Shown: in pieces, positions 42,001 to 45,000 of the stretch
Numbering within the stretch: position 1 is the first letter of the stretch
Layout: every line of letters begins with the position of its first letter
Assembly (NCBI GenBank): GCA_040754455.1
Contig: JBFMCP010000001.1
Coordinates: forward strand, 215,720 to 279,719
DNA from: Nitrospirota bacterium
Lineage (GTDB): Bacteria; Nitrospirota; Thermodesulfovibrionia; Thermodesulfovibrionales; Dissulfurispiraceae
Direction of reading: 5' to 3'
Length of the DNA stretch: 64,000 bases
Position numbers: made by a program

Positions 42001-45000
42001 CGTCTGTTTGCAGCCTTTATCGCCACCTCAATCACCCTGAAGTGCTCATCAAACCCAAGGGTCGAGGCCTCACCAGTAGTCCCGCAGGGGACGATGGCAT
42101 GCGTACCCTGGGCAATGTGCCACTCTATCAGATCACCATATGCTTTTTCATCAAATTTCCCGTTTTTGAACGGTGTTACGATTGCGACAATTGAACCCTT
42201 GAACATGAATGCCTCCCCGTTACAGTTTAGATGAACATAAGTCCCGATCGGTATTTACCTTCTGTCTTATTGCTCCATATGACAACCGCACCTTTGAGCA
42301 TCGAGGGGTTGTCCTTCTTTTTGAAAACGATAATTTCTCCCGGCTTCAGCTCGCTGTCGGTGATGATGCCGATCCCCGATTCGCTGATATCGAGGCAGAT
42401 GCAGGAATACGTAGCGCCTTTCGGCTCGGACTTCTTGACGAATTCGAGCGCGGTCTGGCATGCCCTCCGGGGGTGTCGCCTGTTTTCGGTTTTCTTCTCT
42501 TCGAGGTTGGCAATCCTCCCTTCGAAAACCTCGGTCGCCGGGCCGGTCATATAAATGTGATCATGCTCGGGCCACTCAATGGCAAGATCACCGCCGCGGA
42601 GGTGGATCGTCACTCTCCGCTCGGTCAACCCCTTCACCATCGCTGCCGCTCCCACTGCTGAAGCACCGGTGCCGCAGGCCAGCGTCTCCCCTGCTCCCCG
42701 CTCCCAGACTCTCATGGTCAGCTCCCGCCGGTTTATTACATTCACGAATTCGACGTTCGTCTTGTTGGGGAAGAGGGGATGGCTCTCGATAGCAGGGCCG
42801 TAGACCGTTACAGGAAAATCAGCTATATTTTCATTGAGAAAAACAACGGCGTGGGGATTGCCCATAGAGATGCAGGTTATTCTGAACTCCCTGTCATTCA
42901 CCTTGAGAGGATAGTCGACGATAGGCGCTGCCGCCTTGATGTTGACCGGAATTTTTTCGGCTTCCAGGAGAGGCTCTCCCATATCCACGCGCACCAATTC
43001 TCCCACTCGCTGGGGCCTGATGATCCCGGCAAGGGTATCGATCTTGAGGGTATCTTTGTTGGAGAGCCCCTTGTCCCAGACGTACTTTGCGAGGCACCTG
43101 ATGCCGTTGCCGCACATCTCCACCTCGCTGCCGTCGGCATTGAAGATCTTCATCTTGAAGTCGGCAGCATTTGAATTGAGCAGCAGCAAGAGCTGGTCGG
43201 CGCCGACGCCGAAGCGCCGGTCGCAGAGCCTCTTCGCGAGCTCGGTCATGGTAAAGCGGCTCGAAAGATCCATGTCTCTGGAGTCGATGAGGACAAAATC
43301 ATTGCCGAGGCCGTGCATTTTGGTGAAGGTCAATTCCATAATTCTTTAGAGCAACTTGGGAATGATTTCGCCTCTTATGAGGTCATTGTATGTCTCTCTT
43401 TTCCTAATGGTAGCATATTTCTTTCCCTTGACCAATACTTCTTCGGCCCTGGGACGGCTGTTGTAGTTCGATGCCATCGTAAAGCCATAGGCTCCCGCAC
43501 TCATCACTGCGAGGAACTCGCCCTGCTGGACGCTCTGGATCTCCCTGTCCTTGGCAAGGAAGTCGCCCGATTCGCAAATGGGACCGACCACGTCGCCAAA
43601 AATCGTATCCTTCCTGTTTTTCAGCACCGGCTGGATGTGGTGGTAGGCATTGTAGATCGAGGGCCGTATGAGGTCGTTCATTCCGGCATCGACAATGATG
43701 AAATCCTTGTCCTCTCCCTTCTTAAGGTAGAGCACCTTGGTGACGAGTATCCCCGCATTGCCGACAATCGACCTGCCCGGCTCGAGAACAAGTGTGACCT
43801 TTCTCCCCTTGACCAGAGGCAGGATACTCTTCGCCAGCTGCGAGGGGATCGGCGGTGTCTCATCGTAATAGGTAATGCCGAGGCCGCCGCCGATATCGAG
43901 ATAGCTGATCTCGATGCCCTGTTTGGTCAGGTCATCAATAAGCGAGAGAATCCTCTTCAGCGCATCGACAAAGGGCGACACCTTGGTGAGCTGCGAGCCG
44001 ATGTGCTTATGGATTCCTACTATCGTGATATTCTTCAGACCCTGAGCAAGTTTGTAGTATTCAAGGGCGTTCTCTATGGGAAGTCCGAATTTGTGTTTCT
44101 TCAGTCCTGTCGAGATATAGGGATGGGTCATGGGATCGATGTCGGGATTGATGCGCAGGGCGACAGGGGCCTTCACCTTCATCTTCCCGGCGATCCGGTC
44201 GATCACCCGCAGCTCGTCCTCGGACTCGACGTTGAACATCAGGATTTTGCTCTTGAGGGCGTACTTTATCTCTTCCTCGGTCTTTCCCACGCCGGCATAG
44301 ACGATCTTTTTGGCGGGGATACCGGATTTCAGCGCCCTGAAAAGCTCCCCGCCGGAGACGACATCAGCACCGCCGCCCATTTTCGAAAAGAGCTTGAGTA
44401 CGGCAGTATTGGAATTGGCCTTGAGGGCGAAACAGGTGATATGGGGGAAGCCGCTGAAGGCCTCTTCATAGGCCTTGAAATGGCGGACGAGGGTATTGTA
44501 GCTATAGATATAAACAGGGGTCCCGACCTTTGCCGCTATTTCGCGTACCGGTACATCTTCTGCATACAACTCGCCGTTCCTGTAGTTGAAAAGATGCATA
44601 CGATCCCCTCTCTGACCCCTTATTTGTTTGATTTTTTATCTGTTTTTTTACCATAATAATCAGGATAAAGTCAAAGAAATTGAACAAAAACAGTGAGAAT
44701 TCAGAATTCAGAGGCCAGAAGCCAGAATAAAACTCAAAAGAAAAGATGTTGTTTTTCTTGCAGGTTCTGACTCCTGACGTCTGAATTCTTAAGAAAAGAG
44801 AGGAAGAAATGGGAAAAAATATTGTCCAGAAGATATTTGAAGCACATAAGGCGTACGGCGATACGACTCCTGGAGGCACGATAGGCCTTAACGTTGACCA
44901 GGTGTACACCCAGGACGCCACCGGCACCATGGCCTGGCTCGAGTTCGAGGCCATAGGCATCGACAGGGTAAAAGTGCCGCTTGCAGTCTCGTATGTCGAC

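Follow-up and report, generated by a model that had tools for sequence, protein, structure and literature searches.

A diaminopimelate epimerase joined to a predicted c-di-GMP-binding PilZ domain: fused, neighbouring and duplicated forms in Thermodesulfovibrionales

Cyclic di-GMP (c-di-GMP) controls motility, adhesins, exopolysaccharides and the cell cycle. We found no report in the literature of a direct c-di-GMP receptor on an enzyme of the diaminopimelate or lysine pathway and, in agreement with an earlier note on this DNA, no paper on a fusion between diaminopimelate epimerase (DapF) and a PilZ domain. The 64,000-nucleotide stretch of a Nitrospirota genome analysed here (the window) carries such a fused gene, and it raises the question whether c-di-GMP may act directly on an enzyme that makes meso-diaminopimelate (meso-DAP). 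The genome, assembled in 92 contigs and 100% complete by markers, had been described as rich in c-di-GMP signalling. Its eight c-di-GMP-I riboswitches stood, nine PilZ matches were counted where eight PilZ genes had been given, and 24 GGDEF and 12 EAL matches were found as well.

The fused gene and its operon

The gene lies inside a lysine operon, as had been claimed, in a tight lysA-dapF-dapA-redoxin order on the minus strand. The features of the locus, in window coordinates and with the positions of motifs and key residues verified by translation, are as follows.

43346..44599, minus strand: lysA (diaminopimelate decarboxylase), which opens the operon; Pfam Orn_Arg_deC_N 215 bits, Orn_DAP_Arg_deC 100 bits
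42227..43339, minus strand: dapF-pilZ fusion gene, ATG start, 370 aa plus stop
42509..43339, minus strand: DapF core, residues 1-277, two DAP_epimerase domains
43112..43114, minus strand: catalytic Cys76 (H. influenzae Cys73), codon confirmed by translation
42674..42676, minus strand: catalytic Cys222 (H. influenzae Cys217), codon confirmed by translation
42482..42508, minus strand: linker NLEEKKTEN, nine residues 278-286, from the last DapF strand to RxxxR
42230..42481, minus strand: PilZ domain, residues 287-370, six-stranded barrel running to the C-terminus
42467..42481, minus strand: RxxxR motif RRHPR, residues 287-291 (R287, R291)
42374..42391, minus strand: DxSxxG motif DISESG, residues 317-322
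41331..42206, minus strand: dapA (dihydrodipicolinate synthase); Pfam DHDPS 335.6 bits
40775..41347, minus strand: AhpC/TSA-redoxin (TlpA-like) gene; Pfam AhpC-TSA 110 bits, Redoxin 108 bits

As measured on the window, 6 nt separate the lysA stop from the dapF start and 20 nt the dapF-pilZ stop from the dapA start. The redoxin gene overlaps the end of dapA, is the last conserved member of the cluster and is also found 3' of dapA in related loci. Its product looks exported or membrane-anchored because the translation begins with a hydrophobic segment, as read by eye in the window and in related loci. An Rfam scan of the window returned two tRNAs only, and at the operon neither a lysine nor a c-di-GMP riboswitch.

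The fusion architecture proved real, the open reading frame giving Pfam and TIGR00652 matches on a single 370-aa chain. PF01678 (DAP_epimerase) matched in two stretches with 223 bits, and the NCBIfam equivalog TIGR00652 (DapF) scored 305.6 bits (cut-off 114.65). Residues 2-276 aligned end to end with solved DapF chains (E 3.4e-87 for the cyanobacterial 9mro), and the AF2 model showed the two-domain DapF fold, with TM 0.92-0.94, normalised to the target, against the DapF structures 8qzy, 4ijz and 6d13. Alignment of 41 full-length fused proteins, including the second copy of this genome on contig C42, upheld the claim that the catalytic residues C76 and C222 are invariant (41/41). The ligand residues given for H. 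influenzae DapF in the available part of PMC8225329 (Asn11, Gln44, Asn64, Gly74, Asn75, Asn157, Asn190, Glu208, Arg209, Gly218 and Ser219), when mapped by conserved motifs and spacing, all have equivalents in the window protein (N13, Q49, N67, G77, N78, N161, N195, E213, R214, G223 and T224). The protein thus resembles the canonical DapFs of H. influenzae, E. coli and 9mro in both cysteines, in the substrate ligands and in its lysine/DAP operon setting, but differs in length, since canonical DapFs typically have 270-300 aa as against 370 aa here; among the matches listed, no solved or named DapF carried a C-terminal extension.

PF01678 matches in the genome are confined to C1:257946-259058, which is the window gene, and C42:6995-8107, with two domain matches each. 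Both genes have an in-frame PilZ match, which bears out the earlier statement that there is no PilZ-less DapF. The bypass enzyme diaminopimelate dehydrogenase (Ddh) gave no match in this marker-complete genome. By sequence, the C1 fused protein alone in this genome qualifies as a canonical DapF; on this ground, and given the lysA-dapF-dapA setting and the missing Ddh match, we infer LL-DAP epimerase activity for it and take it to be the probable working diaminopimelate epimerase of the cell. In E. coli, according to the available part of PMC6061791, DapF is obligately dimeric, and the Y268A variant is both monomeric and inactive; the equivalent of Tyr268 in the window protein is F272, 15 residues before R287.

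The PilZ family (PF07238) matched residues 286-369 with 31.7 bits in the whole protein, against a curated cut-off of 22.5, and with 35.6 bits when the domain was taken alone; the match spans profile positions 2-85 of 102. The signature RxxxR and DxSxxG is complete, as the earlier note had it, and R287, R291, D317, S319 and G322 are invariant in the alignment of the 41 fused proteins. PF01678 and PF07238 were precomputed together on 32 of the 120 listed proteins, and a further eight (365-398 aa) have the PilZ motifs and miss the precomputed PilZ label. When 32 fused and free dapF-linked PilZ sequences were aligned, both arginines of RxxxR were invariant; in DxSxxG the glycine was invariant and the aspartate present in at least 90%. 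The second motif is degenerate in the free homologues of genomes G010 and G082 (DAGPSG and DAGSSG), and cysteine or threonine replaces the serine in some other free homologues. It is defined as [D/N]hSxxG in the accessible part of a preprint (10.1101/814665), and the hydrophobic position is filled in the fused proteins.

The AF2 model of the PilZ part alone (pLDDT 86.6) has six strands, as does this part in the full-length model. Its best PDB fold matches are c-di-GMP-bound PilZ domains, namely BcsA 4p00 as the best (E 1.2e-4, TM 0.72 normalised to the query), PP4397 3kyf, VCA0042 2rde (TM 0.75 normalised to the query), MrkH, PA0012, YcgR, MapZ and Alg44. The family profile, searched against PDB sequences, gave no significant match (best E 0.38, MrkH entries). 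A C-terminal helix, with which canonical PilZ is described in the part of the preprint at hand (10.1101/814665), is missing from the AF2 model, the protein stopping at strand 6 (GLMFI), and is likewise missing in free relatives of 88-100 aa. By its motifs and its modelled fold, the domain is predicted to be a canonical barrel of the c-di-GMP-binding type. Confidence in the full-length model (pTM 0.75) is lowest in the linker (mean pLDDT 54 over residues 281-290), which leaves the interdomain pose undefined.

A pilZ gene beside dapF across the order

In the order, which comprises 317 genomes and is named Thermodesulfovibrionales in the source records, a free PilZ gene of 88-105 aa lies between dapF and dapA in at least seven of 13 families. 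Such an ORF was present in 17 of 64 genomes of the window's family, in 4 of 16 genomes sampled from other families, and in all eight further loci from five other families. PilZ was the best Pfam match for 34 of the 35 free ORFs tested (32, and three that follow fused genes), and 23 of the 35 reached the Pfam cut-off. Uninterrupted fusions were found in 13-15 of the 64 genomes of the window's family and, among the matches listed, were confined to that family; the fused form occurs in at least six genera, with 56-72% identity and invariant binding motifs. An assembly artefact or read-through was rejected, since the uninterrupted frame recurs in at least 13 genomes of the family and in about 40 protein clusters. 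The pilZ gene is missing from 23 of the 64 family genomes.

In many cases the free gene overlaps the dapF stop or lies in frame behind it, and the overlap suggests translational coupling. dapF and the free pilZ share a reading frame, one or two stops apart, in at least 15 genomes of other families (eight of them confirmed) and also in some genomes of the window's family. Fused and free PilZ domains are interspersed in the tree, with starred support, and hence more than one fusion or fission would have occurred. PilZ is lost or reduced to a remnant in G001, the congener of the window's genome, and in G016, G063 and G083, and is cleanly deleted in P0044; it is clear from such remnants and deletions that PilZ was lost more than once, also in the congener. 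DapF and PilZ have been linked for much longer, and far more widely, than the fusion alone would show; the fused gene is a late form of an older module.

Outside this setting, the PilZ subfamily had 4594 library matches at E <= 0.001, the best 150 of which were mostly 88-114 aa long. A homologue search with residues 278-370 only recovered the query alone among 22 candidates, and a contig search with generic DapF motif patterns gave 80 loci, mostly ordinary DapFs of many phyla. When 31 PilZ-associated DapFs were compared with 40 PilZ-less ones, no column differed in residue frequency by at least 0.45, and thus there was no sign of a co-adapted docking surface. A complex prediction for the DapF and free PilZ of G051 with two c-di-GMP, run without controls and on 32-row alignments, gave ipSAE of 0.00 and 0.01, where the mark is 0.32, and speaks neither for nor against a contact.

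The second copy on contig C42

The earlier note spoke of two paralogous DapF copies. The 59% identity it gave for C1 and C42 was reproduced, in a gap-free alignment, and C42 retains both catalytic cysteines and all PilZ motifs. In the enzyme part, however, C42 has changed 24 of the 102 columns conserved among DapFs, whereas by the same count 37 of the 38 other proteins have 0-3 changes and one (P0042) has eight. Its replacements N161G, N195D, R214K, E213G and G223S fall on the equivalents of H. influenzae Asn157, Asn190, Arg209, Glu208 and Gly218, with ligands of the distal end of DAP among them; E213 stays Glu in a 97%-identical protein, P0121. The replaced DAP ligands and the 24 changed columns indicate that C42 is probably not a DAP epimerase, and to that extent the description as two DapF copies is not supported. 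The deviation in the DapF part (24/102) is not significantly greater than that in the PilZ part (0/10; Fisher p = 0.12). The dN/dS between C42 and C1 is about 0.19, and so C42 is not a decaying gene; a pseudogene was rejected on this value, on the intact frame and on the occurrence of the 97%-identical protein elsewhere.

C42 is a lineage-specific duplicate and, from the residues it has changed and kept, most likely a c-di-GMP-linked epimerase or racemase with another substrate. In PddB (2,4-diaminobutyrate racemase) the ligands of the distal DAP carboxylate are replaced as in C42, to go by the available part of PMC8225329. C42 shares the fold and the two cysteines with PddB and with DcsC (O-ureidoserine racemase, 7vdy), which came out close to the DapF fold in sequence and fold searches. 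Unlike DcsC and PddB, C42 bears a PilZ domain and, being 59% identical to a true DapF, would have diverged far more recently than they did.

How c-di-GMP may act on DapF

Direct control of DapF by c-di-GMP would be the most economical reading of these sequences. The explanation that we prefer overall, and hold to be somewhat more probable than its negation, is that c-di-GMP bound to PilZ modulates the working DapF, that the fusion came from an adjacent pilZ, and that C42 has been re-tooled. The fused gene would have arisen when the stop codon was lost between dapF and the adjacent, older pilZ, which would have been part of a lysA-dapF-pilZ-dapA cluster spread through the order. In the fused protein, c-di-GMP would be held between the RxxxR loop, which is also the interdomain linker, and the DxSxxG face of the barrel. 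The bound ligand would order the linker and draw the barrel onto the C-terminal strand of DapF; on this strand lies F272, whose counterpart Tyr268 is required for the active dimer. A shift in the dimer or in the open/closed equilibrium would then change the rate from LL-DAP to meso-DAP, and the supply of peptidoglycan and lysine precursors would thereby be coupled to the c-di-GMP state of the cell. Since PilZ has been lost in relatives, such control would be modulatory and not essential. By analogy with BcsA, we lean slightly towards activation.

BcsA cellulose synthase likewise combines an enzyme with a C-terminal canonical PilZ domain bearing RxxxR and DxSxxG, and c-di-GMP acts there directly on the catalytic polypeptide. 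BcsA is, however, a membrane glycosyltransferase for exopolysaccharide, whereas the window enzyme would be an amino-acid epimerase of central metabolism, soluble and in need of no cofactor. Compared with BcsA, DapF-PilZ, as known here from sequence and models, has no equivalent of the gating loop and its PilZ domain is without the C-terminal helix. In YcgR and PlzD (VCA0042), which are close fold matches (2rde, 5y6f), RxxxR lies within the interdomain linker as it does in the window protein, a position from which ligand binding would shift the domains relative to each other. Their N-terminal domain is a non-enzymatic barrel of the PilZN type, in contrast to the complete enzyme found here, and they exert their effect through protein contacts at the flagellar motor.

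PilZ might also be a c-di-GMP-dependent adaptor that brings DapF, or in its free form itself, to some other protein or site, such as the Mur ligases, the machinery of division or elongation, or DapA and LysA of the operon, and leaves the kinetics of DapF unchanged. MapZ and YcgR, complexes of which are among the fold matches, do work through protein binding, and E. coli DapF binds a protein partner, RppH (6d13; available part of PMC6061791). No residue of DapF varies with whether PilZ is there or not, and with the free pilZ lying between dapF and dapA, operon position alone cannot single out DapF. All fusions among the matches listed are nevertheless to DapF and none to DapA or LysA, the repeated fusion or fission points to DapF as the partner, and the cluster offers no conserved third partner besides the redoxin, which is seemingly exported or membrane-anchored; we regard an adaptor role as unlikely. 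The fusion could even be neutral, a pilZ with an unrelated target having ridden in the operon until loss of a stop joined it to dapF with no regulation. A single point mutation would suffice for this, given the in-frame ORFs one or two stops apart in relatives, and the frequent loss of PilZ, in the congener too, the lack of co-adapted DapF residues (31 against 40 DapFs) and the mostly free-standing nature of the subfamily elsewhere would fit. What makes it a rather poor prospect is that the dapF-dapA position has been retained in at least seven of 13 families, that free genes overlap the dapF stop, that the fused form has lasted over at least six genera with invariant binding motifs, and that C42 kept its PilZ domain after duplication while the enzyme part changed.

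It would also undercut direct control if the PilZ domain no longer bound c-di-GMP and were degenerate, a structural or dimerisation appendage, or a receptor for another ligand. The modest Pfam score of 31.7 bits, the family profile that reaches solved PilZ chains only at E 0.38, and the model without the C-terminal helix of canonical PilZ (10.1101/814665, in part) could be taken in this sense. Both motifs are invariant in 41/41 fused proteins, however, the hydrophobic residue is present, and the fold is like that of c-di-GMP-bound PilZ structures; in addition, PilZ domains in fusion proteins are said, in the same accessible part of the preprint, to keep motifs and binding. A domain that has lost its ligand is accordingly very improbable.

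Returning to modulation of DapF by PilZ-bound c-di-GMP, the fused sensor and the neighbouring small gene in relatives together suggest that c-di-GMP tunes the supply of cell-wall precursors. If so, the decision between sessile and motile life would be wired directly to that supply. The wider proposal, an order-wide DapF-PilZ module with meso-DAP synthesis as a direct c-di-GMP target and C42 re-tooled for a different substrate, is offered tentatively and is more doubtful than not; DapF would then be the first enzyme in the metabolism of amino acids and peptidoglycan precursors to be controlled by PilZ. DapF is an antibacterial target, and an allosteric handle near its dimer interface would therefore be of practical interest. 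The locus would also be a clean example of the origin of a Rosetta-stone fusion. PilZ occurs as a free gene beside dapF, in frame behind one stop, fused, fused with an extra pilZ alongside, and fused in a duplicate whose pocket has changed, or has been deleted altogether, and this natural series provides ready-made controls for biochemistry.

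The dapF-pilZ gene and its product

The dapF gene of the window lies in a tight minus-strand operon in the order lysA, dapF-pilZ, dapA and an AhpC/TSA-redoxin gene:

43346-44599, minus strand, lysA, 6-nt gap before dapF-pilZ
42227-43339, minus strand, dapF-pilZ, 370 aa
41331-42206, minus strand, dapA, 20-nt gap after dapF-pilZ
40775-41347, minus strand, AhpC/TSA-redoxin gene, overlapping dapA

In the 370-aa protein Pfam detected DAP_epimerase in two stretches (223 bits) and, over residues 286-369, PilZ (31.7 bits; curated cut-off 22.5), and the NCBIfam equivalog model for DapF, TIGR00652, scored 305.6 bits, above its cut-off of 114.65. 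Only two genes of the genome (92 contigs, 100% complete by markers) matched PF01678, C1:257946-259058 in the window and C42:6995-8107, and PilZ was in frame on both, thereby confirming the fusion claimed in an earlier note. Since only two tRNA genes reached threshold in an Rfam scan of the window (46838-46910 and 47003-47077, both plus strand), no riboswitch was detected at the lysA-dapF-dapA operon.

DapF residues 2-276 aligned over their full length with solved chains (9mro, E 3.4e-87; H. influenzae DapF 1gqz/2gke, E 6.5e-63). The AF2 model of the full-length protein, computed from an alignment of 41 fused homologues (pLDDT 87.9, pTM 0.75), reached target-normalised TM values of up to 0.94 against DapF structures and was least confident in the linker block 281-290 (pLDDT 54). 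Its PilZ part consists of six strands running up to the extreme C-terminus, whereas the canonical PilZ, as described in preprint 10.1101/814665, has a C-terminal helix. The best PDB matches of a PilZ-only model (pLDDT 86.6) were the c-di-GMP-binding PilZ domains of BcsA, PP4397, VCA0042, MrkH, PA0012, YcgR, MapZ, Alg44, MotI and PlzA. RRHPR (287-291) and DISESG (317-322) fit the motifs RxxxR and [D/N]hSxxG as that preprint defines them. DapF residues C76, C222, N13, Q49, N67, G77 and N78 and PilZ residues R287, R291, D317, S319 and G322 were invariant in all 41 full-length fused proteins. In one fused variant of 410 aa (P0017, locus L027 of G080), the two DAP_epimerase halves are separated by an inserted low-complexity stretch of about 40 residues.

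The architecture is evident from precomputed Pfam labels, and the source name of such proteins is 'diaminopimelate epimerase' only. Literature searches gave no paper combining PilZ with diaminopimelate epimerase, and the one that combined PilZ with DapF was unrelated by title and abstract; those for PilZ domain architectures with c-di-GMP and epimerase gave exopolysaccharide papers only, and those for a c-di-GMP receptor in a diaminopimelate context nothing relevant by title or abstract among the matches listed. The strings 'epimerase', 'DapF' and 'enzym' are all absent from the accessible text of the PilZ survey preprint 10.1101/814665, whose supplementary tables could list the architecture.

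Fused, free and lost PilZ

A DapF match was found in 64 of the 68 genomes (24 genera) of the window's family, and their loci were sorted after sequence inspection. Source names on the relatives were Thermodesulfovibrionales, Nitrospirota, Dissulfurispiraceae and hot-spring metagenome.

State of the dapF locus in the window's family
Fused dapF-pilZ: 15/64 (13 intact, G071 broken by contig ends, G077 frameshifted)
Unfused dapF, then a free PilZ ORF, then dapA: 17/64
PilZ remnants: 4/64 (G001, G016, G063, G083)
Spacer of 218-269 nt, PilZ not detectable: 3/64
No space for PilZ: 23/64
State not assessable: 2/64

In three genomes (G007, G008, G053) the fused gene is immediately followed by an additional, free PilZ gene encoding 92-94 aa (L011, L008, L022). 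The genus g8 relatives G051, G052 and G054 have unfused dapF with free pilZ alone.

The order-wide search covered 317 genomes of 13 families, with a DapF match in 303; the best 150 matches were listed, with 480 more beyond, so that counts of dapF-adjacent pilZ are lower bounds. Among the 150 listed, uninterrupted matches to residues 1-370 came from the window's family only, and at least 15 genomes of five other families matched residues 1-368/370 with one or two internal stop codons. In each of the 8 loci inspected out of those 15, dapF is followed at once by a free PilZ ORF, 90-99 aa long. In 16 genomes sampled from 12 other families, free pilZ was present in 4 and absent in 10, and dapA was not adjacent in 2. 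Altogether, dapF-adjacent pilZ was found in at least 7 of the 13 families. PilZ was the best Pfam hit for 31 of the 32 free ORFs scanned across families (24 + 8), 20 of which reached the Pfam cut-off; that of G048 had no Pfam hit at E <= 0.1. A paired alignment of 32 PilZ sequences, of which 11 are fused and 21 free, showed no variation at the two RxxxR arginines or at the second-motif Gly; the second-motif Asp was kept in at least 90%, with Asn in two, and the Ser varied in a few. The observation holds, and there is more to it than first reported. In many split loci (L160-L167, L012; families f2, f6, f8, f11, f12, and G015) pilZ lies in the dapF frame with one stop codon (TGA, TAA or TAG) between.

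A weakly resolved PilZ tree of 68 rows and 93 columns has the free PilZ from other families at its unresolved base and groups free with fused PilZ in starred clades: free genus g8 with fused P0038, and free G010/G082 with fused P0024, P0030, P0031, P0035 and P0041. We read the free pilZ as ancestral, with fusion or fission having apparently occurred more than once. The fused gene is one part of a dapF-pilZ module that is older and more widespread. Losses of PilZ are recurrent: in P0044 a clean in-frame deletion leaves just the final five residues after the linker, and the window's congener G001 lacks about 140 nt from the 5' part of PilZ, with the remainder diverged.

A profile built from the dapF-linked PilZ sequences matched 4594 library proteins at E <= 0.001. 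Most of the best 150 were free proteins of 88-114 aa; the others included REC-PilZ and tandem PilZ proteins, one PilZ-methyltransferase and just one representative of the DapF fusion. The REC-PilZ proteins among these 150 nearest relatives are of about 220 aa; the window itself encodes a 246-aa response regulator (47833-48573, minus strand) with a receiver domain (90.5 bits) joined to PilZ (41.3 bits). Two more free genes of the helix-less subfamily occur in the genome, C1:61461-61715 and C14:6608-6937 (both minus strand), which share 40% and 32% identity with the fused PilZ, and both fall inside the dapF-linked family in the PilZ tree.

A possible route of c-di-GMP control

A predicted PilZ effector is joined to, or encoded next to, a central-metabolism enzyme. 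What was observed is a complete DapF, tethered by nine residues to a PilZ whose binding motifs and fold are intact, and a genomic link conserved in fused and split forms. The genome is rich in c-di-GMP turnover enzymes (24 GGDEF and 12 EAL matches); the 8 c-di-GMP riboswitches previously reported were recovered, all c-di-GMP-I, and the multiple PilZ genes are borne out by 9 PilZ matches.

We propose that c-di-GMP would bind the RxxxR/DxSxxG site and that binding would reposition the PilZ barrel against the DapF C-terminal strand, because RxxxR forms the interdomain linker, as in YcgR/PlzD-type receptors. In E. coli this strand bears Tyr268, and the Y268A protein is monomeric and inactive, according to PMC6061791. 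Since the equivalent residue, F272, lies 15 residues before R287, a ligand-dependent shift, in either direction, of the dimer or open/closed equilibrium may be a concrete mechanism. Diaminopimelate dehydrogenase was not found in the genome (100% complete by markers) and the best LL-DAP aminotransferase-like match was under its cut-off; meso-DAP flux should therefore, judging by gene content, pass through the fused C1 enzyme. A tightly co-adapted DapF-PilZ complex is argued against by the frequent PilZ loss, by the lack of DapF columns tracking PilZ presence, and by an interdomain pose that the AF2 model does not predict confidently.

The second copy on contig C42

In a search of 5.8 billion clustered proteins the sole close relative of the C42 copy was P0121 (97% identity), followed by P0002 (60%) and the C1 copy (59%). 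The C42 copy is a lineage-specific duplicate of the fused gene, because no second DapF was found in other genomes of the family (64 with a DapF match) and its PilZ clusters with that of C1 in the PilZ tree.

At columns at least 95% conserved in 39 C1-type proteins, the C42 copy departs from consensus at 24 of 102 in DapF and 0 of 10 in PilZ, a contrast that is not significant (Fisher p = 0.12); of 38 other proteins, 37 depart at 0-3 of the same DapF columns and P0042 at 8. The changes include N161G, N195D, R214K, E213G (Glu in P0121), G223S and H163Q. Mapped by motif and spacing, residues 161, 195, 214, 213 and 223 correspond to H. influenzae Asn157, Asn190, Arg209, Glu208 and Gly218. According to PMC8225329, the first three bind the distal carboxylate of DAP, Glu208 its distal amino group and Gly218 its reactive carboxylate, and PddB, a DapF-derived racemase with another substrate, shows the same kind of ligand replacement. 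With these DapF columns changed, distal DAP ligands included, C42 is not to be counted as a second DAP epimerase, contrary to the two DapF copies of the earlier note. Both catalytic Cys are retained. Compared pairwise with C1, the DapF and PilZ parts alike give a dN/dS of about 0.19, at a dS close to saturation. The C42 copy is probably a gene under constraint in which the enzyme part has taken on a different function.

The gene is monocistronic; its neighbours are a divergent hpt-like gene and a formate-dehydrogenase-like gene, the latter set apart from C42 dapF-pilZ by a terminator hairpin that is GC-rich and has a T-run. This formate-dehydrogenase-like gene (C42:4168-6921, plus strand) is apparently in two ORFs, with a stop after '...VDHCARL', which we take to be a position often occupied by a selenocysteine TGA in enzymes of this kind.
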